This document shows, piece by piece, positions 355 through 46,461 of a stretch of 64,000 nt of DNA. The notes beneath the pieces are model-generated. The model was not told the DNA's origin. It ran no database searches and saw nothing but the letters and a program-made list of their open reading frames with translations. Origin of the DNA: a virus (taxonomy: Duplodnaviria; Caudoviricetes); IMG/VR virus record IMGVR_UViG_3300032280_000442, positions 96,001 to 160,000 of that record; one strand, written 5' to 3'. The translations under genes and the position numbers were made by a program. Position 1 is the stretch's first letter; every line of letters begins with the position of its first letter.

Positions 355-873
355 TTATTGTTGACTTATGTATTCTGAATCAAAAATTATTTTAATTCCT
401 GTTTTTGATGTTATGTTCTCTTTAAAATAATCGTTTATACCCCACTGAACCTCGTCACTAACTTCCCATCCGTAATCGTCATCATTTAACGCATCTTCTA
501 ATGTTCTATTCTCACCATTTGAAACGGTAACTGTTCCCGACAAGTCATTAACTTTTACACTAACAACTACATTTGGTTTCTTTTCATCCAATTCCCAATA
601 ATCAATGTCATCCACCTCAAAGAAGAAATCGTATCCTCCATACTCATCTATATGATGGGGATTCTGAAGTAATAAGGTTTTAGCAAGTTCTTTAGATTCT
701 TCCTCTCCTCTCCACTCAATTAAGTATTTGTAGGCTTCATCGTAACTAGTAATACCCTCTCTATTATCCAACTTAAACATATTGATAAATTGATTGTCAA
801 TTTCACCCCCAAACTTATCAAAGTATTTGAATATAAAGTTCTTATATTTAGATTCCGTTATTATTAATTTCAT
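355..873 (-). CDS. Hypothetical protein with N-terminal IITE leader
   Basis: 172 aa ORF starting MKLIITESKY; TATTTATA upstream at 901-908. Confidence 0.8.
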   Translation of the reverse strand: MKLIITESKYKNFIFKYFDKFGGEIDNQFINMFKLDNREGITSYDEAYKYLIEWRGEEESKELAKTLLLQNPHHIDEYGGYDFFFEVDDIDYWELDEKKPNVVVSVKVNDLSGTVTVSNGENRTLEDALNDDDYGWEVSDEVQWGINDYFKENITSKTGIKIIFDSEYISQQ

Positions 874-923
874 TTATTATTTAGTTTCTTAAATTATAAT
901 TATAAATAGTTAAAACTACAGAA

Positions 924-1274
924 ATGGCACACCCGCTTTTACATTCAAAATCATCCGCCAAAAAATTTGGTGGTATTCCGGAGGATTATATCCATTTACA
1001 TAATTGGTTAGACGAGACTAAAGGATGGTATGGACATTCATTACATAGAATGTTTAGACATCATTCTGAGGGGATATTTGAGATGGAACGACTCTTTGGT
1101 CAATCATTTATAAATAGTGACGGAAAAGTCGTCTATACACGTTATGTGGGAGAACAACACGTAAAAGAGGATTGTTATAATTATATCCCTACAGCCCGTG
1201 AGTGGATACTAGCAATAGATGCTAAAGAAAAACCTATGTGGATGATAAGGACACTAGACATTAATGTAGATTAA
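924..1274 (+). CDS. DUF6915-like His-rich protein
   Basis: MAHPLLHSKSSAKKFGG..DY..LHNWLDETK..HRMFRHHSEGIF..E..FG..VGEQHVKED pattern. Confidence 0.75.
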   Translation: MAHPLLHSKSSAKKFGGIPEDYIHLHNWLDETKGWYGHSLHRMFRHHSEGIFEMERLFGQSFINSDGKVVYTRYVGEQHVKEDCYNYIPTAREWILAIDAKEKPMWMIRTLDINVD

Positions 1275-1297
1275 CATATTTATAATAAAAAAGATTT

Positions 1298-1999
1298 ATG
1301 CAACCACAAGTTACTGAAGAACAATTAAAATCATTAAAACTATTCGCTCTTTATCTAAACTCATATGGAGCTGAAACGGCAACTAAAGATTATTATATAG
1401 AATATTGTCAGATTGAATATGAAGATGATTATTTTCGTTCACCCGAAACAAGTATACCAATCGAAACTTATAAAAAAATTGATGAAGTTTTAAAAGAAAT
1501 ACTTGAAACTAATGAATTAATTGAAAATGCCACCACAGATTGTGAGCTTAGAGGACAATTAGAGATTGAAATTGATTGCATTGAAAGAACATTAACAGCG
1601 TCCGCAACTCAATGGGAATTTGAAAGTAACGGATTTGAGTTTTCAAAAACTTTAGAAGAAATTTCTGAAGATTATAGTGAAGAAACATATAACGAAGTTT
1701 TAAGGATATTTGAACTGATTGGTGAAAATGGTGAAGGTGAAGCAAGATTTCAAGGTGGTGGTGATAGTGGGTCTTTAGATGGCGATATGTATATCAACGG
1801 GTCATCTGAAGATTTACCAAAACTTATTGAAGATATGTTATATCACTGGTTAGAAGAAACTGATGTAGATTGGTATAACAACGAAGGTGGTCAAGGTAGT
1901 TTTATATTTAGTCCAAAAAATTCAGAAATTTATTTAAATTTAGAACAAAACTATGAAGAAAATGTAACAACACCAATGAACTTTGAAATACATTTCTAA
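1298..1999 (+). CDS. DUF6878-like acidic protein
   Basis: C-terminal FQGGGDSG and DWYNNEGGQG motifs; follows DUF6915-like gene. Confidence 0.65.
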   Translation: MQPQVTEEQLKSLKLFALYLNSYGAETATKDYYIEYCQIEYEDDYFRSPETSIPIETYKKIDEVLKEILETNELIENATTDCELRGQLEIEIDCIERTLTASATQWEFESNGFEFSKTLEEISEDYSEETYNEVLRIFELIGENGEGEARFQGGGDSGSLDGDMYINGSSEDLPKLIEDMLYHWLEETDVDWYNNEGGQGSFIFSPKNSEIYLNLEQNYEENVTTPMNFEIHF

Positions 2000-5127: not shown

Positions 5128-5160
5128 AAAAAAAAAAGGAACTAATTGTTCCTTTATTTT
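5128..5160. terminator. Intrinsic terminator
   Basis: aaaggaac-taatt-gttccttt with A/T tails. Confidence 0.75.
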
Positions 5161-6083
5161 TAATCCACTAATTCTATTTCTGTGTTGTCATCCGTTAAAT
5201 AGTTCGGATAAGTTCTTAATACATCCCATTTAATTGTTTTCATAATATCATTCAACAATACAGGATTGTCTCTAAAATTAGAATCCGGAATCATTTTTCT
5301 ATCAATCATTTTACCAGCTTTAAGAACCTCAACAGATATTTTAATTTTACCATCAACATCTTCAATATCTTTAATCATAAAATTAACTCTAACCGCATCA
5401 TTACCAAAACCACCACTAATTAATTTTGATTGATTAGTTACTTTATCTTTAGACCTGACAAAGTTTGAAACTCTATCAGTTTTAACTCTATCAATATTAT
5501 AACTACCATTTATAAGACGTTCCATTTCACCTTTAGTCACACTCATAACATCTGACTTTAAGTTTGAATCGTATTTAACAGGATTGACCTGACTCATTTG
5601 TTTTCTTGTGGTACTAGAATAAGTATCTAATGTTCTATACCATTGGTCATTAATAAATAAAAATATTGGATACCAACCATATGACTTAACAACATAATAC
5701 CAATCATTATTGTTATTAACGTCCCATTGACCTTCAACATTTGAACCTTTAAACGGCATCTTAGCTGTTGCATATTCATAAGCCGTGTTGTTGGTAACTT
5801 TCCGTTGTTTGAATTGTCTATAGTCCTTAAAGTTTTCTTTTGTTAGATTCTCGTAATCACCATCCGGTCTGAAGTTAGCCGTATATATTTCGTAATACAT
5901 TGTCGCCTCATTTAATGGCATCCCAAAATATCTTAACATTTCCTGAATAAACTTAATCATCTCACTTTTGGTTCCGACTTTCTGTTTATTATCATTAATG
6001 TATTTAAACAACAAAATCTCCTTTTTATTTAAAACAGGAGTTTCTTGTTCTTCACGTAATATACGTTTAATTAATTCTTTCAT
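5160..6083 (-). CDS. Hypothetical protein with ILREE leader
   Basis: 307 aa ORF starting MKELIKRILREEQE. Confidence 0.8.
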   Translation of the reverse strand: MKELIKRILREEQETPVLNKKEILLFKYINDNKQKVGTKSEMIKFIQEMLRYFGMPLNEATMYYEIYTANFRPDGDYENLTKENFKDYRQFKQRKVTNNTAYEYATAKMPFKGSNVEGQWDVNNNNDWYYVVKSYGWYPIFLFINDQWYRTLDTYSSTTRKQMSQVNPVKYDSNLKSDVMSVTKGEMERLINGSYNIDRVKTDRVSNFVRSKDKVTNQSKLISGGFGNDAVRVNFMIKDIEDVDGKIKISVEVLKAGKMIDRKMIPDSNFRDNPVLLNDIMKTIKWDVLRTYPNYLTDDNTEIELVD

Positions 6084-6084
6084 T

Positions 6085-6543
6085 TTATTTTAAGAATCTT
6101 AATTTGTATAATGTAGAGTAGATTAATTCTTGAATAGTATCAATTTGATTTTGAATAAACGATTCTTTAATAGTTTTTCTATTTTTTTCAACCATAGCAT
6201 CTAAAGCTTTAAAATATTTAATAGTTTGTTCATTACTCTTATATTCCTCCGTTTTAATTGATTTATAACCTGTAAGAACATCATATTTACCTTGATAACT
6301 TTCAATAATACCATCCACAAGTGCATCAATCCCTTCATAATACCCTTGTAGAGCTTTATGTTCTGAATATGATTTTGTTTGTAAATGAAATATATGTACT
6401 TGAGTTTGTGAATGTAATAAAATAGACACCATATCTTTAAAACCTGAGTCGGTTTTTGTGTTGTCTACTTTAATATCACCGTCTTCTTCTTGTTCTCTTA
6501 AAAATATATTTCTTTTTTTGAATTGTATTAAATTTTTTTCCAT
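6085..6543 (-). CDS. Ferritin/Dps-like protein (DUF5856-like)
   Basis: HIFHLQTKSYSEHKALQGYYEGIDALVDGIIESYQGKY...YKLRFL. Confidence 0.75.
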   Translation of the reverse strand: MEKNLIQFKKRNIFLREQEEDGDIKVDNTKTDSGFKDMVSILLHSQTQVHIFHLQTKSYSEHKALQGYYEGIDALVDGIIESYQGKYDVLTGYKSIKTEEYKSNEQTIKYFKALDAMVEKNRKTIKESFIQNQIDTIQELIYSTLYKLRFLK

Positions 6544-6544: not shown

Positions 6545-6865
6545 TTATTTTCCTATTATCAGGTCGTCAAACCCTAGTTTATTCATTCCTCCAATTTCTT
6601 CATCATCTTTTAGTTCATCATACATATATGCTTTAACTACCGATGTAATACTTTGTTCCGCTTGGGCTATTTTACTTTCCATCCAATCGTCCAATTGTTC
6701 ATTACCTTCTTCTTCCATTCTCTCCCACATTTTCTCAGCTAACTTAGCGATGATGTATAGCTGTTGTTTCGCCATATACGAACCTTTACCTTCACCCTCT
6801 TTAATGGTTTTCATTTTGGTAACCAACTTTTCAAGTTGTTTTTCTGTTAATATAATGTCCTTCAT
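6545..6865 (-). CDS. Hypothetical protein with ILTE leader
   Basis: Start reassigned to MKDIILTEKQL; MAKQQL..LDDWMESKI..A motif; TATTTATA at 6878-6885. Confidence 0.75.
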   Translation of the reverse strand: MKDIILTEKQLEKLVTKMKTIKEGEGKGSYMAKQQLYIIAKLAEKMWERMEEEGNEQLDDWMESKIAQAEQSITSVVKAYMYDELKDDEEIGGMNKLGFDDLIIGK

Positions 6866-8379: not shown

Positions 8380-8727
8380 ATGGAATTAACTATAAATAAA
8401 AATAACTTTAAAGTCAAAACTGTTATTTCATCTAAAGACACTAGTCAAGGAATGATGAACAAAAAATTTGACCATACTTTTAATGGTATGTTATTTATTA
8501 TGTCCGAAGGTCAACACTGTTTTTGGATGAAGAATTGTTTGGTAAATTTGGATATAATTTTTATTGAAGATGATGTTATAACAGAAATTCACCACAACTG
8601 TCCTCCTTGTAAAACCAAAGATTGTAGAAACTATTGTGGTGAAGGTGATATGATACTTGAACTTCAGGGCGGAACCTGTAAAAAGTTAGGTATTAAATCT
8701 GGTGATAAAGTTATTCACTACGATTGA
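8380..8727 (+). CDS. DUF192 family protein
   Basis: GMM..GMLF..FWMKNC..LDIIFI..ILELQGG..GIKSGD; start reassigned to 8380 after TATTTATA 8367-8374. Confidence 0.85.
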   Translation: MELTINKNNFKVKTVISSKDTSQGMMNKKFDHTFNGMLFIMSEGQHCFWMKNCLVNLDIIFIEDDVITEIHHNCPPCKTKDCRNYCGEGDMILELQGGTCKKLGIKSGDKVIHYD

Positions 8728-10124
8728 TTTATCTTCTCCTGTAATAATTTCACAAACTCATTCTGAATCATTTTAGTAAACTTAACATACGGAGCGTCTT
8801 CCGAATCAGGATTGTATTTATAATTCCCTTTTGGTGGTCTAGTATTTCTACCCATAAAGTTTAATCCTGATATGTTTGTAATACATTTGTGTCCACCACT
8901 ATTTGCCTGAATGAAATCCCAAGCATTTACATTAATACCGTCCAACATTTGTTTATCGTCTTCAGATAACTCAGAAAAAGGTTTTTCCATCATTTGACCA
9001 ATATGGATTAAATCTTTCCTACCATCTTCTCTATTTTTAAATTCTTTACCATACAAGGCGATGAAATCTTTAAATGTAAAACCTGTTGATTCCGGATTAA
9101 AATCTTTTGATGATTCTGAAATCCATTTAATTGTTGATAACGGAATCTCTCTTTGTTTTAATTGGTCTTCCCATTTAGATAAAACCTCTTGAGCAATCTC
9201 ACCTAAATTCACACCTTTTAATTGACGCTCACTTTTAAATGGATTACAAGATGCTTGAACTAATCCTAATGGCCAAGCAATAACAATAAAGTCAGCCTCC
9301 GGATTATTTTTGAATGGTGTATATCTATCGTATGAACCTGGTTTAAACATTGAACCACCTCCATATTGAACTATGACATTCCCTAATACTTTAACATTCG
9401 GATTAGTTTGCATTGATTTAACATACTCATCTTTATTCACTTCAAGTTGTTCCGGCTTAGCATATCCTTTCTCAACCATTATTCTTTTAATTGTATGAAG
9501 AATGTTTAATAAAGATGGTGAACATTCCATAACCAAAGTTTCTAAGAACTCCGGTTTGTTTTTAAATGCTAATAATAGTTTGTTAACAACTAACCCCATT
9601 AACATTTTATTTTTTTGTAATGACTTATCTTTATCTAATTTAAATAAATAAGAAATTACTTCATCTACCGAAATGTTGTTAACCGCATAATTTGCAGAAT
9701 CAACAGTTGAAATAAGTAATATATCTGAAGATGGAAATAATTCTTTAGGAGAAACAACCTGAGAAATTGTTTCAACATTTGAACGAGAACTTCTAAAAGA
9801 TGTTGATTTAGTATCTTCAGCACCGGCTTGTCTATCGTGGTGGTCCGTATGAATTACAAACATTGGTTTTCCGTGAGCAAAATCCACTAATACCGGCATT
9901 GTGTCACCTTTAGCATCATTCTTTTTTACCGCAAACTCTTTATCACCATATTGAATAATGTGAGCCCCAACAACTTTAATACCATTGTTTTCAAGGTATT
10001 GTTTCATTGCTATAGCCGTAGTCACACCATCTAAATCTTGGTGAAAATATATTTCCGCTTTGGGATATCTTTTAGAAAGAGCATTAATATCTCTTAATCC
10101 ACTTTCTTTTATAAGTTTTTTCAT
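8718..10124 (-). CDS. DHH-superfamily phosphoesterase
   Basis: HQDLDG, LVDF, TDHH, DS and C-terminal GGH motifs; N-terminal LIKE leader. Confidence 0.75.
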   Translation of the reverse strand: MKKLIKESGLRDINALSKRYPKAEIYFHQDLDGVTTAIAMKQYLENNGIKVVGAHIIQYGDKEFAVKKNDAKGDTMPVLVDFAHGKPMFVIHTDHHDRQAGAEDTKSTSFRSSRSNVETISQVVSPKELFPSSDILLISTVDSANYAVNNISVDEVISYLFKLDKDKSLQKNKMLMGLVVNKLLLAFKNKPEFLETLVMECSPSLLNILHTIKRIMVEKGYAKPEQLEVNKDEYVKSMQTNPNVKVLGNVIVQYGGGSMFKPGSYDRYTPFKNNPEADFIVIAWPLGLVQASCNPFKSERQLKGVNLGEIAQEVLSKWEDQLKQREIPLSTIKWISESSKDFNPESTGFTFKDFIALYGKEFKNREDGRKDLIHIGQMMEKPFSELSEDDKQMLDGINVNAWDFIQANSGGHKCITNISGLNFMGRNTRPPKGNYKYNPDSEDAPYVKFTKMIQNEFVKLLQEKINQS

Positions 10125-10125: not shown

Positions 10126-10479
10126 TTACATTTCAGGCATTATCACAATTGCAATCACATCACCACTTTTCAAACCCTTACTTAATGAGCAACCTTTGTT
10201 AATTCTAATAAGGTCATCAACACTAGTAACACCAGGATGTTTTGACGCAATGTCACTTAGTGTATCACCTGATTTAACTTTATATAATTTAACATTATAA
10301 CCATAAGCGGATTGAAGTCGTTTTGGGTCACCAAAACAGTATTTACCACCCATTTCAGGTTTAATATTATTCATTTGAACACTAACTTCTTTTTGTCGGT
10401 TCATTTGCTCACTAACTAAACCATATTTAGAAAGGATGTCACCTTTTTCTTCTTCAGTAATTATAAATCTTTTTGCCAT
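10126..10479 (-). CDS. LysM domain protein
   Basis: YKVKSGDTLSDIASKH..SVDDLIRIN..LKSGDVI; N-terminal IITEE leader. Confidence 0.9.
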   Translation of the reverse strand: MAKRFIITEEEKGDILSKYGLVSEQMNRQKEVSVQMNNIKPEMGGKYCFGDPKRLQSAYGYNVKLYKVKSGDTLSDIASKHPGVTSVDDLIRINKGCSLSKGLKSGDVIAIVIMPEM

Positions 10480-13107: not shown

Positions 13108-14469
13108 TTAATTAATTCTCATTATGTAATAAGTCTCACCGGCAACATTAATACTATCGTAATTACCGTCATAACTATTCATAATACCCCAACCATCAGA
13201 GTCAACTAACCCTTGAGCTAAAGCGTCTTCATCTATATATTCCTTGAAGTCTAAACCATAGTTTCTAAGATAATCTAATGGGTCTCTTTTTACATCTCTA
13301 ACCAACTCATAAACTTTATTTTCAATCATATCTTCGGTTGGTTCAGTATCAACTTCAATACTATCTAATTCTTCTTGGAGAGCTTCTATCTGATTATCTA
13401 AATCTTCTTCGTAGTCATAATAATTGTCATCATCTGAATCCAATTCAAGTTTTTGTTGTTCTAAATCTTCTATTTGTGACTCAATTTGTTCTATTCTTTC
13501 TTCTTGTTCCGAAGTCAATTCATAATCATCATCATTAAAATAACTATCAGGGTTCTCTCTTACTTCATAATCATAATCTTCTTCTGCCATTCTAACAATT
13601 GCATCAACATCCAAATAATCTTCAATAAATGATTCACTAAATCCATCAGCACCCACATCATCAATATAAGACACTGCATATTGTAATGCCGCAGCATCCA
13701 TTTCTTCTTCAGTTCCAACAGTATATTCTCTATCTCTGAAACCAGATATTAAAACCTCAAATTGTTGTAAACCATAATGAGTATATCTTGATGCGTACAT
13801 CATATAAACATCCGCATTATTCTCTTCTAATTCTTCAATTTCTGTTTGTGTTTCATCAATAGTTTCTTGTAATTCATATGCTCTCTCGTCATTATCATCA
13901 AGTCCCTCATACTCTTGTTCCAAATCTTGAAGTTTACGTCTCAAAATTGTTAATTTTTCAATATCCTCATCCGATAATGGTTCAATCTCACCATTATTAA
14001 CTAAATTGTCAAATAATGCGTGAGCTTTCTCTCCGGTCTCATCTCCCTGTTCTAAAGCCCATTCGTCACTATCACGAAGAGATTCTTGTTCACCAAGTTT
14101 AGCATTTAGTTCTTGTTTCTCTCTAATTCTTTCGCGAGGAGAACCACCATCAGAAATATATTTTTTAACTTGTAAACCACCTAAGTCACCCACTTTAGTA
14201 TTACGAATATCTAATGAACCATCAATATAAGCTATTGGCCCAATATCTTTAACATCCTTACCACCCAAATCTAAATCTCCGGTAATGTATAATGGTTTAC
14301 CACCATATTGTTTCATTTTTCTAAAAACATTACCATTATAACTGGCATATCTCATCACATCCAAATAATCCTCAGGAGATATTCTATAATATTCGTCCTC
14401 AGTTTCTTTGATGATTTTCTTAATTACATTATATAATTCGGATTCTGTAAGTCTCAATTTTCTACTCAT
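13108..14469 (-). CDS. Highly acidic protein with LRLTESE leader; possible DNA mimic (ArdA-like C-terminus)
   Basis: Start reassigned to MSRKLRLTESEL; very D/E-rich; two coiled-coil repeats; EYIDEDALAQGLVDSDGWG..SYDG. Confidence 0.6.
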   Translation of the reverse strand: MSRKLRLTESELYNVIKKIIKETEDEYYRISPEDYLDVMRYASYNGNVFRKMKQYGGKPLYITGDLDLGGKDVKDIGPIAYIDGSLDIRNTKVGDLGGLQVKKYISDGGSPRERIREKQELNAKLGEQESLRDSDEWALEQGDETGEKAHALFDNLVNNGEIEPLSDEDIEKLTILRRKLQDLEQEYEGLDDNDERAYELQETIDETQTEIEELEENNADVYMMYASRYTHYGLQQFEVLISGFRDREYTVGTEEEMDAAALQYAVSYIDDVGADGFSESFIEDYLDVDAIVRMAEEDYDYEVRENPDSYFNDDDYELTSEQEERIEQIESQIEDLEQQKLELDSDDDNYYDYEEDLDNQIEALQEELDSIEVDTEPTEDMIENKVYELVRDVKRDPLDYLRNYGLDFKEYIDEDALAQGLVDSDGWGIMNSYDGNYDSINVAGETYYIMRIN

Positions 14470-14539
14470 ATCAATAAATATCAACGAAGATACAAAATTT
14501 ATTTACTTATTACCATTATTATTGATATTTATGAATAAT

Positions 14540-16214: not shown

Positions 16215-16244
16215 AAAAAATCCCCAATCAAGGGGATTTTTTTT
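16215..16244. terminator. Bidirectional terminator (near-duplicate at 16986-17014)
   Basis: aaaaaatcccc-aatcaa-ggggatttttttt. Confidence 0.85.
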
Positions 16245-16965
16245 ATCTTCTAAACCAACTTCTTCTTTCTTCTTTTGACGCAGATTTAGACACGCCACAT
16301 TTAGTATGCGAAAAATCAGGGTCTTGAGTATCACAAGATGGCACGTTTGGTAATTTTTTTTGTTTTTCTAAATATTTTACATAATCAGCTTCAGTTTTAC
16401 CAGGGTTATTCTTCAACCAAGCATCCACATATTTTTTATGTATTTCTTCAGCCTTTTTTAATTCAGGTGCTCTTTTTTCCTTCCAAGCTTTGGCAATAGA
16501 ATCTTTTTTCTGAATGGTTTTAAGTCTTAATTCTTCAGCAGCCTTCTTTTTAAGTTCAAGTTTTTCTTTATTTAACTTAATTTGTTCTTCTCTACTTAAT
16601 TTAACCGGTGTTGTGGTTGTAGAAGTTGTGGTTCCGGAAGTTGTGGTTTGTTCATCCAAATAATTTTCTAAATTTAATATTACAAATGTTGTATAAGTAT
16701 TATCCTCATTTTGAAATATTTTTTCTTTATCTATTTTACTTGTATTGGTATTATATATTTTTGTTTTAATTTTTTTTGAAAATGCCCTCATTGCATTTTT
16801 TACCGCTAATTCTTTAGAAAAAGACATATTAGGACTTTTACCTTCACCAAACGCTTTTTTACTATTTACATCATCATTACAAACACTCCATTCTTTTCTG
16901 ATATTTTCCGGAGTGGTTTGTTCAACCAAATAATTATACTGAGATTCTTTAATTACTATTTTCAT
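16243..16965 (-). CDS. Hypothetical protein with VIKESQ leader and LPP20-like segment
   Basis: MKIVIKESQYNYLVEQ; FGEGKS..S...A...A; Thr linker; Lys-rich C-terminus. Confidence 0.7.
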   Translation of the reverse strand: MKIVIKESQYNYLVEQTTPENIRKEWSVCNDDVNSKKAFGEGKSPNMSFSKELAVKNAMRAFSKKIKTKIYNTNTSKIDKEKIFQNEDNTYTTFVILNLENYLDEQTTTSGTTTSTTTTPVKLSREEQIKLNKEKLELKKKAAEELRLKTIQKKDSIAKAWKEKRAPELKKAEEIHKKYVDAWLKNNPGKTEADYVKYLEKQKKLPNVPSCDTQDPDFSHTKCGVSKSASKEERRSWFRR

Positions 16966-16985
16966 ACTAATAAATATCTCATAAA

Positions 16986-20055: not shown

Positions 20056-21450
20056 TTATTCTTCCATATGGTAGAAACCGTCACCTGAATTGTATTTTTC
20101 TAACGATTCAGGAACTTTAACATTCGGACATCTACTTACATTTAAAAATGTAAGATTTGGTAGTGTTGTAACACACTCAGGAATTGTTCTCAATTCTTTG
20201 TTGCCAGGGAAAGCTAAGAACACTAAGTTTTTTAATTCACAGATTGAATCCGGAACTTTACTAATCATATTTTCAAACAAAATAGCCGTTAACGATGTGA
20301 ATCGACTGATTGTGTCCGGAACATCAATATTAACAGTTTCATTTGACGTGTTAATAATATTTAATCTTTTGATTGTTGTTGGTAGTGAGTTGAACAATTC
20401 TTCAAAACCATATAATGCTACGAACTTACCTGTTGCGGAGTCCGGATATTTAATCTCAACATTATCCGAATTTGGTTTAACAAATCCTGCAGCAAATTCA
20501 GGTTTGAATATTTCTTTAAACTCAGACCATTTTCCATTTAAATACTCAACAACCGGGATGTTACCTCCGTGTTGGTTAGCAAATTTAAATTGGTTTGATG
20601 GGAAGTGGAATTGATATCTTTCAGATGGCAATCCTGTAACCTCACCTACTTTACCTTTATCATCATTAGCGATGAAGATATATAACGGACCTTGATTTCT
20701 ATAAGTGTTTGAATAACTTGAGTTTTCTGCCGCAGTACACCAATTGGTTTCACCTCTATCAAGACCACCATTATAACCCCCAAAATAAGATGCCGCCTTA
20801 GAACCTAAAGCCCCTTTGTCAGCAATTTTGATTAAGGTATATTCAGAACCAACTTTTAAGATTTCAGCACCAGGAATATTATAGTTTGTGTTAACCGCAG
20901 CTCCTGCCTCTTTCTTAACTTTTTTACCACGATACATATTTAAATCAACAGTTTCACCATCGCCCACCTTAACTTTTAAGTGAGATAAGTCATTCAATGA
21001 TTTAACATTATTAATGTCTTTTTTAGAGGCATCCTCTAAACTACCTTTAAATCTATCGTATTTCACCAATAACTCAGTGAATTGAGATAAATCTTCTAAG
21101 AAAAGTCTTCTGTATTCGTTTGCTTTTGCTTTATATTCGTCAGAACCAACTTCAATTGGTTCGTTAGTTACTTCTCTAGTAAGGTTTGGTTTAACAAATA
21201 GATTCAATAACCATTGAGTATATTTACCAACTTTAACCTTGTCACTTGTCATATCTTCAACAGACGCAGCTTCTTTGTCATAGTTCTCAGGAACTCTTGT
21301 TGTAGGGTCAGCAAAAACTATTTGCTTAACAACCTCAAATGGTAAAATACCTTTTTTTCTCTCACCACTAGGTAAAACATATTTCTTGTATAATATTTGA
21401 AAACGAGCGTCTTCAGTAATTAAGTTCGATAATACTTTTGTAATCTTCAT
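20056..21450 (-). CDS. LITE-leader protein with TNWC domain and C-terminal leucine-rich repeats
   Basis: KYTQWLL, AASYFG..TNWCTAA..GPLYI..RYQFHF; LRR-like VPDSICELKNL, IPECVTTLPNL. Confidence 0.7.
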   Translation of the reverse strand: MKITKVLSNLITEDARFQILYKKYVLPSGERKKGILPFEVVKQIVFADPTTRVPENYDKEAASVEDMTSDKVKVGKYTQWLLNLFVKPNLTREVTNEPIEVGSDEYKAKANEYRRLFLEDLSQFTELLVKYDRFKGSLEDASKKDINNVKSLNDLSHLKVKVGDGETVDLNMYRGKKVKKEAGAAVNTNYNIPGAEILKVGSEYTLIKIADKGALGSKAASYFGGYNGGLDRGETNWCTAAENSSYSNTYRNQGPLYIFIANDDKGKVGEVTGLPSERYQFHFPSNQFKFANQHGGNIPVVEYLNGKWSEFKEIFKPEFAAGFVKPNSDNVEIKYPDSATGKFVALYGFEELFNSLPTTIKRLNIINTSNETVNIDVPDTISRFTSLTAILFENMISKVPDSICELKNLVFLAFPGNKELRTIPECVTTLPNLTFLNVSRCPNVKVPESLEKYNSGDGFYHMEE

Positions 21451-27015: not shown

Positions 27016-28311
27016 TTATTGAGTTTTTTGATTGTACCCCATTAAAGATTTTATTCTTTCAAACTCTTCGTTAATTTGTTTTGTTTTTTTATCTTCAATA
27101 GACTCTAATTTAATGTTTACACCTTTACCTTTTTCAGTCCCACTTTTTTCGTTAAAAACAGGTTGAGGTACTCTATTATAAGATTGGTCTTTTAATTTTT
27201 TAAGTGTATTTTTCTTTCTTAATTTATTAAATCTATCATTTGTTTTAGACTCTAAAGCATTCCCACCCGGTGCGTTACCCGTTTTTGAATCTCCTTTATA
27301 TAATTTTTCCATCCAATCTTCATTAAATTCAATAGCATCAGGTGTTGGTAAATTTAGACCTGCAATTTCATAATTAAAATCTTCTAAATCATCTGTCATT
27401 TGAAAAGCCTTTTTATCCATTTTCTCTAATTCACCATTACCTACCGGAAATATTTTTGGATTCATTTCATATTCACCTTTAGAACCATCTTTAAGGTAAT
27501 CTTTCATTTTTTTGGTAACATCCTTAATATAATCATTATTCTCTTTACCAGAACCGTTGTGAGCTTTTTTATAAACCTCTAAACCTCTTGGAGAACCACC
27601 CATACCTTTAATGTTATTTTTTTCCGCAGGGTCTTTAACAATTTTATTTTTTTGGTCTTTAACAATTTTCTCAATCAAACGAATCATTTCACTTTCAGTC
27701 AATCTATAAGACTCTTTAACAGAATATTTTTTACCATCAACCTCAAAAGAATCTTTACCTTCTTTTTTTGCCTTAGCTAAAGCTCCCGAAAATGCGTTAC
27801 CTTCTTGAGTTTCTTGTTCTTCCATACCGTGTTTTACAGATTTTTTCACACTTTTTTCTTTACGTAAAAGTTTAAAGTCTTCAGAATCAATCTTATTGTT
27901 TTTGTTTCTATCCAATCTTTTTTGACGGCCTTTTAACGCCTCATTAATGTTAACACCTTGACACATTTCTTTAGTAACAGGGTCTTCCTTACCAAAATTT
28001 TCTATATGGTATTTACAAGTTTTTTCTTTGTCTTCGTCAGTATCCTCAACATCAACTTCAATGTCGTCAATATATTCATTCTCACCAACGTAGTCGAATT
28101 CACCGTTAATATCCCCTTCATCGTGAATATCTTCTTCCATTTGACCACCACTATAACCACATTCATTACATTCACCTTCATACATAGTTCCACCACATTC
28201 GCATACATCACCTTTAATTTTAGAAACAAGACTATCTGCCTTTTCTTCTAAAGTTTCTTTTAGAATTTTAGATACTAAATTATCTAAATAAGTTGTATTT
28301 AATTTTTTCAT
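27016..28311 (-). CDS. Putative head scaffold/internal protein
   Basis: Charged low-complexity; many (I/L)xE sites; CECGG..CNECG; EF-hand-like LDRNKNNKIDSEDF; TATTTATA at 28325-28332. Confidence 0.5.
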   Translation of the reverse strand: MKKLNTTYLDNLVSKILKETLEEKADSLVSKIKGDVCECGGTMYEGECNECGYSGGQMEEDIHDEGDINGEFDYVGENEYIDDIEVDVEDTDEDKEKTCKYHIENFGKEDPVTKEMCQGVNINEALKGRQKRLDRNKNNKIDSEDFKLLRKEKSVKKSVKHGMEEQETQEGNAFSGALAKAKKEGKDSFEVDGKKYSVKESYRLTESEMIRLIEKIVKDQKNKIVKDPAEKNNIKGMGGSPRGLEVYKKAHNGSGKENNDYIKDVTKKMKDYLKDGSKGEYEMNPKIFPVGNGELEKMDKKAFQMTDDLEDFNYEIAGLNLPTPDAIEFNEDWMEKLYKGDSKTGNAPGGNALESKTNDRFNKLRKKNTLKKLKDQSYNRVPQPVFNEKSGTEKGKGVNIKLESIEDKKTKQINEEFERIKSLMGYNQKTQ

Positions 28312-28350: not shown

Positions 28351-29217
28351 TTACTTTAAAAAGGTATTTTCATACTCATAAGCAATAATTGTTTTAATTA
28401 CATTCTCACTTATATTATGTCTCTGACTAATATTTTGAATAGCTTTCTTAACTTTTTCATTCTCAAATATTTTTAGAGCCTTTATGTCACCTTGATTACA
28501 ATATGGGAATTTTTGACATTTCTTTTTAACTTGAACAAATTTACCACCCGGTATTTGTGTTTTCTTTCTACCACCCCAATCTTTTTTATTGGTTGATTTA
28601 GCCCAAGCAGATGTTGTTTCGTATGAACCGGAAGACCCTGAACCCGTAGCTTCGGTAGCTTCAACTTTTTTAGTTTCACCACAAACACATTTAGATTTAA
28701 CTCTATCACAAGAATCGCAATATTCTTCATTCATTTCTTTTTTTGTTGCTGAGAACAATGGTCCTGAGTACCCACCCGCAGAACCTGAACCTGTAGATTC
28801 TTTATTTTCTTCTTTACCAACTCGTTTGTATCGACTTTTTTTAATAAACGGGTCCGACTGACTTACATTTGGTGTACCAAATTCATTATCTTTTTCTTTA
28901 AATTTTTTAAAATCAGAATCTTTTTGTAAATCTTTCTTAAATTGTGATTTAGCACTCTTATCTTCACCCATAATAGGTAATGATGAGGTTAATTTACCAA
29001 TTGGTTTATTAATCTTAGGTTTACCCACTAATTTATCAGCAATACCTTTTTTCATTGGTCGTTTAATTATTTTTAATTTTTTATTCTCAGGAATTTCATT
29101 TTTAAATTCATTTGCAGTAATTACCGCATCAATACCTCCTTGCGACACAACATTAGATTTTCCAATTTCTTCAGAATAAGCCTTTTTCAAATCAGCCCCA
29201 ATACTTTCTTTTAACAT
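28351..29217 (-). CDS. Putative head-associated protein
   Basis: MLKES start; repeated E(S/A)TGSGS(A/S)G.Y; Cys clusters. Confidence 0.5.
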   Translation of the reverse strand: MLKESIGADLKKAYSEEIGKSNVVSQGGIDAVITANEFKNEIPENKKLKIIKRPMKKGIADKLVGKPKINKPIGKLTSSLPIMGEDKSAKSQFKKDLQKDSDFKKFKEKDNEFGTPNVSQSDPFIKKSRYKRVGKEENKESTGSGSAGGYSGPLFSATKKEMNEEYCDSCDRVKSKCVCGETKKVEATEATGSGSSGSYETTSAWAKSTNKKDWGGRKKTQIPGGKFVQVKKKCQKFPYCNQGDIKALKIFENEKVKKAIQNISQRHNISENVIKTIIAYEYENTFLK

Positions 29218-29913: not shown

Positions 29914-30187
29914 TTGTTTGTTTTTTAATTATTGTTATGTTATTGTCTATGTGATGAATTTCTTTTGTAATTTTAACCACATTACCTTTTACAGAATCAA
30001 TCTTAACGTCAATCCCTTCATTAATCGCTTTAGCAGAATCAATTTCTGTTTGAATTGATTCGATTTTCTTTTTATAACTATCAACATCAGTTTTAATTCC
30101 ATTGGTTGTAAAGATGTTCCATCCCGCCAATACAATAACGATTATCAATAATATATTCTGTTTATTATTACTTACAATATCTTTCAT
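29828..30187 (-). CDS. N-anchored coiled-coil protein (i-spanin-like)
   Basis: N-terminal TM then coiled coil; near amidase. Confidence 0.55.
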   Translation of the reverse strand: MKDIVSNNKQNILLIIVIVLAGWNIFTTNGIKTDVDSYKKKIESIQTEIDSAKAINEGIDVKIDSVKGNVVKITKEIHHIDNNITIIKKQTNEKVNSVDTLTANELEQFFTNRYDKSKN

Positions 30188-30801
30188 TATTCTTCTGTTT
30201 TAACTGTTTTTTTTCTTGAGGCTAAAACTCCAGCCCATTTTGATTTAAATTTTTCATAATAATTTTTTAATTTACCAATTAAATTTAAAAATTCATCATC
30301 AACTTTTAACATTTCACCATTAATATAAACACCATTTTCTTCACCTATTGAAAAGAAAAATTCAATATCAAATTCTATTAAAGTACCTGACCATTCAACA
30401 TTATTTGTGTATACGTTTAGTTTATTAAAATCCGCCATATCCGAAACATCGGCAACAAATTCATCCATAGTTTCTTGGAATGCAATTTTTTCATCTGTTG
30501 TTAATTCTAAATCTGTTTGGTTTTTACCGTGTAAAACTAATAATCCACCTGAAATTCGATAAACTTGTTTTTTATCGTCCTCAGATTCTTCTTCGTCATC
30601 TTCAGCAGTATCATAATCAATTTTATCTTTAACTGATTTTGTTACATTAATTTTTGAAGTGACATTGTTATCAGTTAAGTCAACACCTTGTTCTGTCAAT
30701 AATCCGTATTGTCTACGGATATCCTCATTAATAGTCTCATTATTTAATAATTTTCTTGAGGCTTCTAATAATTGTTTAATTTCATCGTGTGAATTGTTCA
30801 T
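30187..30801 (-). CDS. Hypothetical protein with LLE/INE/LTEQ leader
   Basis: 204 aa ORF. Confidence 0.75.
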   Translation of the reverse strand: MNNSHDEIKQLLEASRKLLNNETINEDIRRQYGLLTEQGVDLTDNNVTSKINVTKSVKDKIDYDTAEDDEEESEDDKKQVYRISGGLLVLHGKNQTDLELTTDEKIAFQETMDEFVADVSDMADFNKLNVYTNNVEWSGTLIEFDIEFFFSIGEENGVYINGEMLKVDDEFLNLIGKLKNYYEKFKSKWAGVLASRKKTVKTEE

Positions 30802-32512: not shown

Positions 32513-33313
32513 TTACAAATATTCAAACAATATTGAACTATCATTCCTTAATTTTCGTAAAGCCTTTTCTTTGATTTGTCTAACTCGTTCTTTTGTTAGA
32601 TTAAAATCCGTACCAATATCTTCAAGGGTTCTTGGTGTCCCACTAAGACCGTAATAGTCCTCAACAATCACTTTTTCTCTTTCATCTAAAACACTTAGTA
32701 AAGAATGTAACTGTAATTTTAATTCATCTTTAGTGTTAAATACCTCATCCGGCATATCCGCTTGGTCATTTTTAATGATATCTACAAGAGTATCACCATC
32801 TTCGTTGATATTCATATCCAAATCAATCATTGAAGGTAGGTTTTGGAATTTATCTTCTAACTTACCACCATTAGATTCAATTGCTTTCTTAGCTCTATGT
32901 AAATCCTGAACCACATTAACCGGTAGTCTAATTGTACGAGCATTATCATTTAATGATTGAAGGATGGATTGTTTAACCCACCATACAGCATAAGATATAA
33001 ATCTAAGGTTCTTAGACCAATCAAAATTTTGGATTGCTTTCATCAATCCTAAGTTACCCTCAGAGATTAAATCAGGGAAGTCTAAACCTTGATTTTGATA
33101 TTGTTTAGCAACTGTAATAACAAAACGTAAGTTACCCTCCAACAATTCTTGGTTTACATCATCAATCTCTCTTGGAGATAAAGTCCCGGACATAATCAAT
33201 TTAGATAATTCTCTCTCTCTTTCAGGAGTCATTACTTTAATCTTACGAATGTCTTTTAAATACAAGTTAATCTCTTCTTGATTAATTGGAATACCTGAGC
33301 TTTTTTCTTTCAT
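32513..33313 (-). CDS. RNA polymerase sigma-70 factor, Bacteroidota RpoD-like (no region 1.1)
   Basis: YLKDI, NLRFVITVAKQYQNQG, DLISEGNLGL, RFISYAVWW, TLEDIG..LTKERVRQIKEKALRKLR. Confidence 0.95.
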   Translation of the reverse strand: MKEKSSGIPINQEEINLYLKDIRKIKVMTPERERELSKLIMSGTLSPREIDDVNQELLEGNLRFVITVAKQYQNQGLDFPDLISEGNLGLMKAIQNFDWSKNLRFISYAVWWVKQSILQSLNDNARTIRLPVNVVQDLHRAKKAIESNGGKLEDKFQNLPSMIDLDMNINEDGDTLVDIIKNDQADMPDEVFNTKDELKLQLHSLLSVLDEREKVIVEDYYGLSGTPRTLEDIGTDFNLTKERVRQIKEKALRKLRNDSSILFEYL

Positions 33314-38086: not shown

Positions 38087-38512
38087 TTATATATTATTTT
38101 GTTTATTTATTTTTTCAAGTTCTTCAATCCTTGTGTTTTTTAAAGATAGTTCTTTTCTAAGTTTCTGTAAAGTTTCTTGGAGAAGTTTAACCTTATTATT
38201 TACTTGAGTTTCGTCCCCAATTTTATCTATATTTGGGACGGGAACTTCTACTATAATTTCTTTAATGACCTCAACCTCTTTAATAACTTCCACCGGAACT
38301 TCTACCCGTATTTCACGGATTACTTCAATTTCTACCTGTTTTTCACCAACAATATCCGTTTTTTCTGAATCATCACCAAGTAAACCATATTTTTCAATGT
38401 TCAAACCATTGGTAAAACATTTAGATATAAATTTCTCGACATCCTCAATATTGTTTAACTTACAATATTCTTGAACTAATGTTAATTGATTAGTTGTTAG
38501 TTTGACTTCCAC
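38087..38512 (-). CDS. Hypothetical protein with VEVP repeats
   Basis: EYCKLNNIED..IEKYG then VEV(I/P) repeats and coiled coil. Confidence 0.7.
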   Translation of the reverse strand: MEVKLTTNQLTLVQEYCKLNNIEDVEKFISKCFTNGLNIEKYGLLGDDSEKTDIVGEKQVEIEVIREIRVEVPVEVIKEVEVIKEIIVEVPVPNIDKIGDETQVNNKVKLLQETLQKLRKELSLKNTRIEELEKINKQNNI

Positions 38513-40396: not shown

Positions 40397-41296
40397 CTAT
40401 TTCATTTTATAAAAGTAATCACTGATGTCACCCCTTAAATCGGCAACATCGGCATCACCCGTTAATTTTATTATTTTAACCTTACCATATAATCTCCCGC
40501 CATTTAAGTTGTGGAATAGTTTTACACCATCATTCCAAGCGTCACTATCCAAACAAATAATTATATTCCCATTTGCTTTCTCGTATAATGTATTAAGTAA
40601 TAGGTCGGACATATGTTTTCCCAACATAGCGATACTATTAGGTAAGAATATCGCATCAAACGCTCCTTCACAAAGATGAATGTCGGCATTCCAATTGATT
40701 GTACTTTCAAAAAAAATTATATCATCTTTTGATGCCTCAGGATTTTTGTATTTGGCTCTTGAGTTCGGGTCCCAACTTCGGGCAATAAAATAGTTCAACT
40801 CATCCTTACTATCATAGGATGGTATAATAATCCTTCCTGAGAATGCTCCACTATCACAGAATCCGATACCATACTTCTCAATAATCTTATCGGTAATACC
40901 TCTTTGAGTTAAGTAGTTATACGCCTGACGACGAACCGGATAAACTAAACTACTATCTTTGAATTTGGTAAATCCTTCAGGTAGTTTTAATTTAGTAACT
41001 CGTTTCTCTTTTGGTTTGTGATTTTCCGGTTGAAGTAAGTTGTAGATTTTTTTCTGTTTCTTATTACCAAAAGTATCTATAAGTTTTCCAAGAGGTCCTT
41101 TGGTATTATTTTCATCACCACAACTCCAACATTTATAAACGTGTTCAAAGTAATTTACCTCCATATTTCCTTTGTGCTGGTCTTCATCGCATACAGGACA
41201 GTCAAAAGATATTTGACCCTTTGACTCATAGTGAAGTTTTTCATCACCTAAGATATCGTGTAATATCTCCAATAAAATTTCCGCATCATCTGACAT
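40397..41296 (-). CDS. DNA primase (zinc finger + Toprim)
   Basis: CPVC..CWSC, RIIIP, KYKNP, EGAFD, LDSDA; promoter TTTG-N19-TATCTTTG 41302-41332. Confidence 0.9.
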   Translation of the reverse strand: MSDDAEILLEILHDILGDEKLHYESKGQISFDCPVCDEDQHKGNMEVNYFEHVYKCWSCGDENNTKGPLGKLIDTFGNKKQKKIYNLLQPENHKPKEKRVTKLKLPEGFTKFKDSSLVYPVRRQAYNYLTQRGITDKIIEKYGIGFCDSGAFSGRIIIPSYDSKDELNYFIARSWDPNSRAKYKNPEASKDDIIFFESTINWNADIHLCEGAFDAIFLPNSIAMLGKHMSDLLLNTLYEKANGNIIICLDSDAWNDGVKLFHNLNGGRLYGKVKIIKLTGDADVADLRGDISDYFYKMK

Positions 41297-43359: not shown

Positions 43360-43370
43360 TAAATTAATAT

Positions 43371-46259
43371 ATGACATCAATAATTTTAACTAACATATCA
43401 GGTTTAACTTACCCATATGACATTTACGTATGTGATGTCTATGGTAATAATTGTGGTTATGTTTCACAAGTTATTTCATCAATTCCACCAACAATAGAAA
43501 TTGTTTTACCACCCCCATTTAATATGGCACCTGCGGTCGGTATTAAAATTATTACATCAGATAAATGTGAGAGATTTAGAGTTATTGATTGTATTAATGT
43601 TGTACCTGTTATCGTTGATTGTTCTAGTTATATTACTACAGGAGGTACGGATATATTTAAATACAATATTGACACTAATGCGTTAACCCTTCTAACGTTC
43701 CCATCATTACCATCAATTAGTGATATCGCGAACAATAGTAATAAATTTTGGATTACAGATGTTAATAACCCTCAAGAAATAACAGAGTATTACATTAACC
43801 CAACACCATTTGTTGCAATATTTAATAGAATACTATATCCGTCGAAACCTTTATTAGGATTATGTGTTAAAGATGATAATACTTTAATTTCAACAATAAC
43901 CGGAGCAACTGTCGGAGCATCCTATATTGTTGTTGAAGTAGATTTAACAACAACAATTCCAACAATCACTAATAAATTTTCATTACCGGGAACTGGTAGG
44001 ATACTTGGTGGTGATTTATATTATTTTCCAACTACAGGTAAATTATTTGTTGCAAATATTGGTTCAGGTAATACTTACTTAACTCAATATAATTATTCTA
44101 CCGGAACATTAGAATATGATACAATACTTAACCCATCAATTACAGGTGTTTATGGGTTGTCCTCAAAAAATAGTGACCTTTATCTTTTTGAATACTCGAC
44201 AGGGAAGGTATACCGTCTTGACAATATAACAATACCAACATTTACTTTAGTTCAAACAACAATTCCGGGTGTTGGCGCCGCATCATCAGATGTTAATTGT
44301 GTTATTTTTGCAACACCAACACCAACCCCAACAAATACAAATACTCCAACACCAACTCTAACACCAAACCTTTCACCATCAATAACACCAACAAACACTA
44401 CAACCCCGACATTAACACCAACAAATACGTCAACACCTACCTTGACACCAACAAACACTACAACCCCAACATTAACACCGACTAACACCACAACTCCAAC
44501 AAATACTATAACACCAACAAGAACTGTAACACCTACTATAACACCAACAAGAACTGTAACCCCTACTGTGACACCAACCAACACCATAACTTCTACCGTA
44601 ACACCAACATTAACCGTAACACCAACAGTAACACCAACAAATACTACAACACCTACCTTGACACCAACAAATACTACAACACCTACCTTGACACCAACAT
44701 CATCATCTGTTTGTTTATCTCCGGTTATCACTAATGTTACACCAATAAGTTCTAGTTTTTTATTAGTTTATTTTACACCGTCATCTAATTGTAATTCAAT
44801 ATTTTTACAATATTCGTATGATAATATCTATTGGTATTATGGTGCCGTAACTCCAAATGATTGTACATCACCATCCAGTTTTAATTCACTAACCACAACC
44901 AATACCGTATATGTTAAAATTGGTCAAGTATGTAGTGTTGGAGGTATTAGTGTATATTCTAATATTTTATCTTACACATTCCCAACCCCTACTCCTACAC
45001 CAACAAGTACTGTCACACCAACGTTGACTCCAACAAATACGCAAACAATAACACCAACAAGAACTGTAACTCCAACAACAACACCAACGTTATCCGCAAC
45101 ACCAACGTTGACACCAACAAATACGCAAACAATAACACCAACAAGAACTGTAACTCCAACAACAACACCAACAAATACGCAAACAATAACACCAACAAGA
45201 ACTGTAACTCCAACAACAACACCAACAAATACGCAAACAATAACACCAACAAGAACTGTAACACCAACTGTAACGCCTACTATAACACCGTCAATTACAC
45301 CTACTATGACTCCGACAAACACACCAACACCGACTGAAACTCAATCAATACTTTGTGAATGTTATACATTAACAAATATTAATACGGGTATGACATTTAT
45401 TGATTCTACAACTTTCCAATATATTGATTGTAGTGGTGTCACTCAAAATATCGCAGCAACTTTTGGAGGTTCAGTAGATGTTTGTTCACAAAATGTCCCT
45501 GTAAGAATCTTAGGTGACCCAGGAAGTGTTGGTCTGTCATCATTTAATTGTTGTGCGGTACCAATTTCATTAGGATATAGAGTGACAGATGCGACGTGTG
45601 TATCTTCTGGTTGGACCTTAGTTGACCTATGTGCAAATAATTCCACAACAAGTTTATGTGATGCAACAGTGTTATATCAATCGGATATTGATGGCAATTG
45701 TACCTTTGCCTCAGCATCTGCGGGTTATTATAAAACCACTGATAACATTAGTAGAAGATATTGGGATGGTCTAACATTCCCTGCCGCTTGTTATGGATGT
45801 GGTTGTCTTGTTTCCAATACAATAATAACATTATCGGATGGGTCTACCAAATTAATACAAGATATTCAAGTGAATGATGTACTTAAATCTATTGATGTGT
45901 CAGGAATGCCTCAACCTGCCGATGAGTGGTACTCTTGGAGTAGTAATACATTGAATTACGTTGATTCAACATCGACAGTAATTAATTTTACAACATACGA
46001 ATTTGATTCAGTTGTTAACATTAATAATAGTAGATTAATTGCTACTGATTCTCATAACCACGTTGTTAAACAAAATGGTGTTTGGTACATCAGAACAACG
46101 TCTGAATTAAATATTGGCGATATATTGTTAGATATAGATAATACCGAATTTGAAATCACATCATTAGTTACAATCACAGAACCAACAACAGTTTATGATA
46201 TTGACGTTAATAATAGTAACTTATATTTTGCGAATAATGTCTTAACTCACAATAAATAA
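43371..46259 (+). CDS. Thr-Pro-repeat fibre protein with beta-propeller-like region and C-terminal Hint domain
   Basis: Two long TPT tracts; CLVSNTIITLSDG..I..I..ND..VYDIDV..LYFANNVLTHNK. Confidence 0.8.
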   Translation: MTSIILTNISGLTYPYDIYVCDVYGNNCGYVSQVISSIPPTIEIVLPPPFNMAPAVGIKIITSDKCERFRVIDCINVVPVIVDCSSYITTGGTDIFKYNIDTNALTLLTFPSLPSISDIANNSNKFWITDVNNPQEITEYYINPTPFVAIFNRILYPSKPLLGLCVKDDNTLISTITGATVGASYIVVEVDLTTTIPTITNKFSLPGTGRILGGDLYYFPTTGKLFVANIGSGNTYLTQYNYSTGTLEYDTILNPSITGVYGLSSKNSDLYLFEYSTGKVYRLDNITIPTFTLVQTTIPGVGAASSDVNCVIFATPTPTPTNTNTPTPTLTPNLSPSITPTNTTTPTLTPTNTSTPTLTPTNTTTPTLTPTNTTTPTNTITPTRTVTPTITPTRTVTPTVTPTNTITSTVTPTLTVTPTVTPTNTTTPTLTPTNTTTPTLTPTSSSVCLSPVITNVTPISSSFLLVYFTPSSNCNSIFLQYSYDNIYWYYGAVTPNDCTSPSSFNSLTTTNTVYVKIGQVCSVGGISVYSNILSYTFPTPTPTPTSTVTPTLTPTNTQTITPTRTVTPTTTPTLSATPTLTPTNTQTITPTRTVTPTTTPTNTQTITPTRTVTPTTTPTNTQTITPTRTVTPTVTPTITPSITPTMTPTNTPTPTETQSILCECYTLTNINTGMTFIDSTTFQYIDCSGVTQNIAATFGGSVDVCSQNVPVRILGDPGSVGLSSFNCCAVPISLGYRVTDATCVSSGWTLVDLCANNSTTSLCDATVLYQSDIDGNCTFASASAGYYKTTDNISRRYWDGLTFPAACYGCGCLVSNTIITLSDGSTKLIQDIQVNDVLKSIDVSGMPQPADEWYSWSSNTLNYVDSTSTVINFTTYEFDSVVNINNSRLIATDSHNHVVKQNGVWYIRTTSELNIGDILLDIDNTEFEITSLVTITEPTTVYDIDVNNSNLYFANNVLTHNK
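45027..45262 (+). repeat. 54-bp coding tandem repeat (TPTNTQTITPTRTVTPTT)
   Basis: Near-identical units at 45027, 45111, 45165, 45219. Confidence 0.85.
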
Positions 46260-46278
46260 TAACTTAGTATTATTATTT

Positions 46279-46461
46279 TTATAAAGTTTTGTCTTTAGGA
46301 TTTCTTCCTAAATTTTCGTATATCCTTAGAAGTTTTAAGGATTCGTAGTAATTTTTTTCCAATCTATCAAGTTCCTTCTCAGGAACACCTCTGTCACACG
46401 CCAATTCATAAGCCTCTTTTGCCTCTGTAACAACATTAGATATTGTATCAATCAGTTTCAT
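46279..46461 (-). CDS. Small protein with VVTE leader
   Basis: Start reassigned to MKLIDTISNVVTEAK after TATTTATA 46465-46472. Confidence 0.65.
   Translation of the reverse strand: MKLIDTISNVVTEAKEAYELACDRGVPEKELDRLEKNYYESLKLLRIYENLGRNPKDKTL

Follow-up and report, generated by a model that had tools for sequence, protein, structure and literature searches.

The capsid-targeting tag of bacteriophage T4 is a peptide of ∼10–20 residues that is portable to foreign proteins and is removed by the protease gp21, which itself loses nine residues by self-cleavage (PMC9958956; PMC5694885). In phiKZ-like giant phages (phiKZ, 201phi2-1 and SPN3US), many of the head and ejection proteins are made with N-terminal propeptides, which often contain more than one cut site; the prohead protease of these phages cuts at Ala/Ser/Gly-x-Glu, and diverged paralogues, for example SPN3US gp53 and gp54, have kept similar N-termini (PMC5694885; PMC10052503). 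Here we describe short N-terminal leaders shared by otherwise unrelated proteins in the genome of an uncultured T4-related phage, a 308,574-bp IMG/VR record with direct terminal repeats, rated 100% complete and with a GC content of 31.5%. The window is the 64-kb stretch spanning bases 96,001–160,000 of this genome; positions are those of the window unless the genome is named.

A sequence-only reading of the window had noted (I/L/V)-x-E leaders on 14 proteins and proposed that they load diverse effectors into the capsid. The shared leaders are real, and the pattern is stronger than first described. Because the leaders end in a T4-type head-protease motif, some sixty leader-bearing late proteins are probably loaded into the capsid and trimmed there, and we put at roughly 60% the probability that the leaders represent propeptides of the T4 capsid-targeting type, which the head protease removes, in a much larger modular set. 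The cargo proposal is partly supported: the portability of the leaders, their T4-type ending, the presence of a protease gene, co-regulation with structural genes, and a match to the capsid protein's own site all speak for it.

Leader classes on otherwise unrelated proteins

All 14 N-termini were confirmed at their gene starts. Among 377 genes called genome-wide with a simple codon-usage caller, 52 carry leaders that match regular expressions for seven classes (A–G), or 64 when hand-added variants are included. The classes, at least seven in number (examples are MKIIITESQY.., MKKIIRLTESDL..VKRVL.EQ and MNLQENI.RI..MMG), nearly all end in hydrophobic-hydrophobic-x-Glu (ϕϕxE), followed by Gln, Ser or Glu. 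The Glu lies at residue 7–37, mostly 15–24, and the logo of the site reads I-(V/I)-K-(K/R)-(V/I/L)-(I/L)-x-E-Q. The class patterns are:

Class A: MK(I/L/V)(I/V)ITE(S/E/N)(Q/K/R)Y..L.E(Q/S)
Class B: MKK.I(R/K)LTES(D/E)L..(I/L)V(K/R)RV..E(Q/S)
Class C: MKELIKK(I/L)LREE
Class D: MNLQENI.RI..MMG.I.E
Class E: ..(I/F)I.EEEK.RIL..H....SEQ
Class F: ..IK(Y/E)(L/I)(F/L/M)G....(V/I)ISEQ
Class G: MK(L/I)I..I...(I/V)(V/T/N)E

Enrichment is strong for the specific families genome-wide and modest for the loose (I/L/V)-x-E motif in the window. With Glu at residues 6–10, [ILV][ILV]TE occurs in 22 genes of the genome, 49 times the rate in protein interiors, and [ILV]-T-E in 31 (16 times). For the loose motif, with expected counts taken from interior windows of proteins, Glu falls at residues 3–12 in 20 of the 78 window genes (14.1 expected; p=0.05) and at residues 3–20 in 34 (22.9 expected; p=0.0005), with no significant enrichment among these genes over residues 3–45. 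The phiKZ-type motif [AGS]-x-E is not enriched at N-termini, its frequency within the first 30 residues being 0.3–0.9 times that of protein interiors. A second complete relative (G003; 268,739 bp) has ∼60–70 leader genes, with [ILV][ILV]TE enriched 28-fold and ϕϕxE[SQE] at residues 6–25 enriched 6- to 18-fold. In the present genome most leader genes are on the minus strand, within the first 125 kb, and the window contains the tail of this block.

The leaders are portable, as the sequence-only reading had supposed: homologous bodies in related phages bear different leader classes, and the bodies behind the leaders are mostly unrelated. A body containing ..YSPAGKE.., for example, follows MKLINTIIRIVNEE here and MNLQETIRRILREE or MKELIRHILREE in related phages, and one containing ..FYGSVEE.. 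follows a class-A leader here and class B or ..IIRRVLVEE elsewhere. When 37 leader proteins are stripped of their first 25 residues, 30 of them find no relative in the genome by BLAST. A 30-nucleotide class-A pattern encoding MKIIITE(S/R)QY recurs, among the matches listed, in more than 120 IMG/VR stretches on AT-rich contigs, ahead of many different bodies, and in only three tiny metagenome-assembled-genome contigs within 596 Gb of cellular genomes, one of them binned to Flavobacterium. CheckV figures suggest that the leader-bearing contigs are fragments of ∼300-kb genomes.

Conservation of the leader is best followed in g353, a class-B protein for which a profile-free search yielded 109 cluster representatives (50% identity), 105 of them beginning with Met. 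A ϕϕxE site lies within the first 40 residues of 77 of these 105, compared with 9 of 100 in a control window; the Glu is mostly at residues 15–24, Gln follows it in 50 of the 77, and all leader classes are present. Across 58 aligned homologues with a mean column identity of 19%, at least 90% retain Glu22. The g353 body has an invariant Glu in GIIGRES and a ..YN.G motif, and its Pfam SLT hit falls slightly under the cut-off. An AlphaFold2 model, with a predicted local distance difference test score (pLDDT) of 90, places a coil at residues 1–8, a separate leader helix at 9–21 and a low-confidence linker from residue 22 to ∼45 ahead of a confident body. The top Foldseek hits of this model are all lytic transglycosylases at E ∼0.1, so that the fold assignment is consistent, not proven; a PDB sequence search gave no match for the protein. 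In a model of a small class-A family (pLDDT 89), MKIIIT forms an N-terminal tail that is not packed, and the helix from residue 7 lies within the fold.

Shared N-termini might also be the relic of gene-family expansion or cassette shuffling, without a common protein-level function, as when one ancestral small gene is duplicated many times and its 5' end kept by recombination. The leader genes do stand in tandem arrays (33 of the 64 at 60–100 kb of the genome), a few of their body families consist of true paralogues, and some homologues lack the tag, such as the homologue of g4 in contig L109. However, the synonymous sites of the leader are scrambled, which leaves no conserved DNA of the length that recombination would need; the leader persists in front of bodies with unrelated folds (DHH-like, LysM, transglycosylase-like); Glu22 of g353 withstands the divergence described above; and the tag occupies the extreme N-terminus in every case, however long the protein behind it. 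We regard such a relic as improbable.

A T4-type head module and late co-regulation

The prohead protease presupposed by the sequence-only reading is present in a T4-type head module, as a minus-strand gene at genome positions 271066–271791 with a Peptidase_S77 match (PF03420, the gp21 family; E=1.6e-24, 83.9 bits) at 271207–271635. The module also yields Portal_T4 (E=1e-77) and Gp23 (E=5e-66, with PDB gp23 matches), in the order portal, two small core genes, protease, small gene, acidic scaffold and capsid protein; the scaffold-like gene between protease and capsid protein encodes 528 amino acids. An S77-type protease was found in 22 of 30 leader-bearing records, including all seven of those at least 90% complete. 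The closest cultured relative of the capsid protein, at 41% identity, is that of Flavobacterium phage immuto, which lacks the MKIIITE families and has only a few leader-like starts close to its head genes, and which therefore offers no ready laboratory model.

The ending of the leaders recurs within the head module. In the capsid protein the sequence at residue 60 is ASFLINE↓A (the arrow, here and below, follows the Glu of the site), where a cut is predicted from its likeness to T4 gp23, which has SFLTE↓A at its known cut, E65↓A66, and a mature chain of 456 of 521 residues; the corresponding sequences are FLINE↓A in G003 and QIVSE↓A in immuto. Hydrophobic-x-Glu (ϕ-x-E) sites are abundant in the scaffold (20, compared with 10.5 expected) and in the core genes g340 (14; 4.8 expected) and g336 (7; 1.4 expected), and local sequences of scaffold and core such as DLVKES, SLSEQ and NVLLES match leader endings. 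Outside the window, the tagged genes g132 and g133 (genome 79470–80469) have internal E-(L/F)-T-E sites (..GEFTEK.., ..EELTEK.. and ..EELTEY..). G003 holds two head modules in one record (loci L152–L165), at ∼25–37 kb and 226–236 kb, one of jumbo type and the other immuto-like, in which a separate S77 protease, capsid protein and portal are encoded; an assembly chimera, a satellite or a second capsid system would each be a possible explanation.

The leader genes are also co-regulated with structural genes. TATTTAT lies within 45 nucleotides upstream of 23 of the 52 leader genes (odds ratio 2.6, p=0.003), and heuristic transcription units headed by it cover 62 of the 64 leader genes compared with 165 of 313 others (odds ratio 28, p=3e-13), so that the association drawn in the sequence-only reading holds both close to gene starts and at unit level. 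The same element heads scaffold, protease, portal and tail-region genes. Genome-wide, 116 of its 289 occurrences fall in the 60 nucleotides upstream of a same-strand start, exactly 11 nucleotides before the ATG in 25 genes (in the window, for example, at 16966–16976, 14470–14480 and 46462–46472) and ∼21 nucleotides before it in 11 more. Should TATTTAT serve as a -10-like element of late promoters, many late mRNAs would lack a 5' untranslated leader entirely or almost entirely. A candidate for reading one class of phage promoter is encoded in the window:

32513..33313, minus strand: phage sigma-70 family factor (Pfam Sigma70 regions 1.2, 2 and 4)

These observations invite an explanation at the RNA level, in which the conserved start would be an A/U-rich, unstructured 5' coding region suited to near-leaderless late mRNAs in a host without Shine-Dalgarno pairing. 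The fixed spacing of TATTTAT agrees with it, as does the failure to find a Shine-Dalgarno signal ahead of gene starts anywhere in the genome, and ATA codons are somewhat over-used in the leader. Synonymous codons nevertheless vary at every leader position (ATA/ATT/ATC, ACA/ACT/ACC/ACG, GAA/GAG), Ser appears as AGT and also as TCT and TCA, and Ile, Leu and Val are exchanged, so that selection on the leader acts at the protein level. Promoterless, operon-internal leaders are conserved as well as those behind promoters, and the conserved ending lies 15–24 codons inside the gene. With amino acids conserved while codons vary, we reject the RNA-level signal as having only a very slight chance of being right.

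At the protein level, the leaders might instead be an uncleaved sorting or assembly tag with a target other than the capsid interior, for example a peptide recognised by a ClpA/B-like AAA+ unfoldase of the phage, a docking helix for another late structure or a membrane-association helix. The core of the leader is a basic amphipathic helix, and a double-AAA+ Clp-like ATPase adjoins leader genes; cleavage of the leaders is itself deduced from sequence. Yet the invariant hydrophobic-x-Glu ending agrees both with the rule for S77 proteases and with the site in the capsid protein itself, classes whose helices differ considerably can replace one another provided that the ending is kept, and the motif is common to scaffold and core proteins, and on this balance we judge an uncleaved tag unlikely. 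The ATPase gene itself lies outside the window, at genome positions 285504–287549 on the plus strand (L021:5504–7546), next to the four leader-tagged genes g353–356 and a gene for a small HExxH protein.

The leader could, finally, be a recognition sequence for an enzyme, either in radical-SAM tagging like that of ribosomally synthesized and post-translationally modified peptides (RiPPs) or as a double-glycine leader with a C39 peptidase exporter. Class B (L-T-E-S-D/E-L-x-x-I/L-V) is superficially like bacteriocin double-glycine leaders, but the leaders lack Gly-Gly, and the proteins that they precede reach 526 residues. Peptidase_C39 (PF03412) is absent from the complete genome, with positive controls, and the radical-SAM (PF04055) and SPASM (PF13186) families are absent from it too; we consider recognition of this kind highly improbable.

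For T4-style capsid targeting, the preferred reading, we infer core binding, cleavage, head residence and injection as successive steps. Late in infection, ∼50–60 small to medium proteins would be made along with the head proteins, each with a 7- to 37-residue N-terminal tag consisting of a short hydrophobic stretch, an amphipathic helix or both and ending in ϕϕxE. The tag would carry its protein into the assembling scaffold core of the prohead, where the gp21-family protease would cut after the tag's Glu, as it would in the capsid protein and scaffold, and the mature cargo would remain in the head and exit along with the DNA. Among the candidates for such cargo are an enzyme resembling lytic transglycosylases, a LysM protein and a DHH-like phosphoesterase, besides very acidic proteins and many unknowns.

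Several points weigh against capsid targeting. No cultured phage with these leaders was found, although the 25- and 30-residue leader pieces compared by tblastn with 50,697 phage records were too short as queries or were filtered; the literature searched held no virion proteome for this phage or any relative, and none of four leader strings turned up in a full-text search of papers. Co-occurrence of leader and protease is trivial, because the leader-bearing contigs all belong to one clade. Bodies exposed to the protease should avoid its motif, and under an objective rule the depletion of ϕ-x-E in cargo bodies is a weak trend in three data sets (ratios 0.67, 0.32 and 0.79; p=0.29, 0.054 and 0.065); a stronger depletion (1 compared with 6.8 expected, ratio 0.15) depended on a hand-picked set and is not counted. 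In some small class-A families the helix after ITE is part of the fold, so that only seven residues are removable. The number of tagged genes, ∼50–64 (∼15%), far exceeds the approximately eight of T4, and the leaders share nothing with the T4 IPII/IPIII tag MKTYQEFIAE beyond its ending, so that they are an analogue of that peptide or a distantly diverged form of it, and not the peptide itself.

If the tags do signal packaging and cleavage, some sixty unknown proteins become candidate members of the first group of phage proteins to reach the host, a group in which anti-defence and takeover functions would be expected, and T4's handful of internal proteins would be expandable into a large, exchangeable cargo library. 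The tags would then also offer short and natural portable sequences with which foreign proteins could be loaded into large capsids, and would supply a simple annotation rule for flagging virion cargo in uncultured T4-related phages. More tentatively, and at less than even odds, a widespread clade of ∼300-kb phages, probably with Flavobacterium-type hosts, may use at least seven interchangeable address peptides with one protease-site ending to load ∼60 different proteins into the capsid for co-injection (15% of genes and ∼10% of coding residues), with cell-wall enzymes, a phosphoesterase and hyper-acidic proteins among them. Such a modular repertoire of virion cargo would be larger than any other known and would evolve by swaps of tag and body.

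Leader genes of the window

Nine of the 14 leaders are solid members, by family membership or leader-bearing homologues, three are plausible and two are doubtful. The nine solid members are:

355..873, minus strand: 172-aa protein, class-A leader MKLIITE↓S (codons ∼853–873)
5160..6083, minus strand: 307-aa protein, class-C leader MKELIKRILREE (∼6048–6083)
6085..6543, minus strand: 152-aa DUF5856 protein, idiosyncratic leader ending IFLRE↓Q at residue 17 (∼6493–6543)
6545..6865, minus strand: 106-aa protein, class-A variant MKDIILTE.. with a second site TIKE↓G near residue 22
8718..10124, minus strand: 468-aa DHH-like phosphoesterase, shortened leader MKKLIKE↓S (∼10104–10124)
10126..10479, minus strand: 117-aa LysM protein, class-E leader MAKRFIITEEEK..YGLVSE↓Q (∼10408–10479)
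13108..14469, minus strand: 453-aa very acidic protein, class-B leader MSRKLRLTESELYNVIKKIIKE↓T (∼14404–14469)
16243..16965, minus strand: 240-aa protein, class-A leader MKIVIKESQYNYLVE↓Q, then a Thr/Pro linker (∼16921–16965)
20056..21450, minus strand: 464-aa protein with weak leucine-rich repeat (LRR) similarity, class-G leader MKITKVLSNLITE↓D (∼21412–21450)

The cargo identities proposed in the sequence-only reading are mostly weak. The LysM domain is firm (E=1.8e-9), whereas DHH (22.7 bits against a Pfam cut-off of 28.1) and the LRR matches fall under their thresholds, and the protein called ferritin-like matches only DUF5856 (E=2e-21). The 307-aa protein had no hit in Pfam, nor had the 240-aa protein in Pfam or PHROG. 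The acidic protein, with a net charge of -79 after residue 25, is possibly a DNA mimic or scaffold-like filler.

Homologues of the 172-aa body in related phages likewise begin MKII(I/L)TESQY, and MKELIK..(I/L)LREE is common to four genes of the genome. Relatives of the 106-aa protein begin M(G/S)KIIITEKQLE..(I/M)(N/K)E(E/N), followed by a conserved EGSYMAKQQ body. The DHH-like protein starts MKKLIKES↓GLRDIN here and MKIIITESQYK.LIKES↓GIRDIN in orthologues of 50–70% identity; a word-indexed search returned, among the matches listed, only relatives of at least 90% identity, which indicates an abundant clade and says nothing of function, and a PDB sequence search gave no match. Other homologues carry different leaders: the DUF5856 protein has leaders ending LMSEQ or LILEQ directly ahead of an acidic stretch, LysM homologues in contigs L062 and L067 have the class-B leader MKKVIRLTESDLVRIVKRVISEQ in place of class E, the acidic body follows ..SRIIKEE, ..NFLLEQ or ..RRVLNEQ, and the body with LRR similarity follows MSLLFKNLLKDLIVE↓N.

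The three plausible members are:

27016..28311, minus strand: 431-aa protein, leader ..NLVSKILKE↓T at residue 19
30187..30801, minus strand: 204-aa protein, long leader ending RRQYGLLTE↓Q at residue 37
46279..46461, minus strand: 60-aa protein, class-G-like leader MKLIDTISNVVTE↓A, TATTTAT 11 nucleotides upstream

One homologue of the 431-aa protein, which had no family hit in Pfam, has ..RFEKILSEN at the same position, and the ending of the 204-aa protein's leader is similar to class-E KYGLVSEQ and KRQYLSEQ. Homologues of the 204-aa and 60-aa proteins were not found among the sampled relatives.

The two doubtful members are probable chance matches:

1298..1999, plus strand: 233-aa protein starting MQPQVTEE, with a C-terminal DUF6878
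28351..29217, minus strand: 288-aa protein starting MLKES, a match of four residues without family support

Homologues of the former begin MTEIKISPEMKK.. or MKTIKLTDDQKK.. and have no ϕϕxE site.

The remark in the sequence-only reading that DNA-metabolism genes generally lack such a leader agrees with five untagged genes of the window, the first two assigned by sequence reading only:

14531–15127, plus strand: GIY-YIG-like endonuclease
23705–24616, minus strand: J-domain protein
34515–36842, minus strand: SbcC/Rad50-like ATPase
38490–39287, minus strand: calcineurin-like phosphoesterase
40397–41296, minus strand: primase-like protein

A DNA similarity search of 41608–46259 against phage records gave no match.

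Comparison with known systems

Encapsulin cargo-loading peptides are likewise short and portable and direct diverse enzymes into an HK97-fold shell, and the likeness to the leaders is that of a short portable peptide on diverse proteins. Encapsulin tags are, however, usually C-terminal and uncleaved, and encapsulins neither package nor inject DNA. The propeptides of phiKZ-like phages differ in being mostly longer than 100 residues with a small residue at P3; a motif of that kind is not enriched at N-termini here, and the head module is of T4 type with a recognisable scaffold.

The T4 system is closer. It comprises IPI, IPII, IPIII and Alt, and also gp24, gp67 and gp68, and it too places a short N-terminal peptide ending in Leu/Ile-x-Glu on otherwise unrelated, non-essential head proteins. 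Passed through the same pipeline, T4 gives MKTYQEFIAE (IPII and IPIII), ..TITE↓A (IPI), MELITE (Alt), ..LLRE↓S (gp24) and MNEPQLLIE (gp21), with no leader family comparable to those of the jumbo phage; IPI and Alt use I-T-E, and gp23 uses L-T-E. The present leaders differ in falling into at least seven sequence classes that are exchanged among homologous bodies, and in their preferred ending, ϕϕxE followed by Gln. The description that fits them best is a multi-class and greatly enlarged form of the T4 principle of capsid targeting and propeptides.

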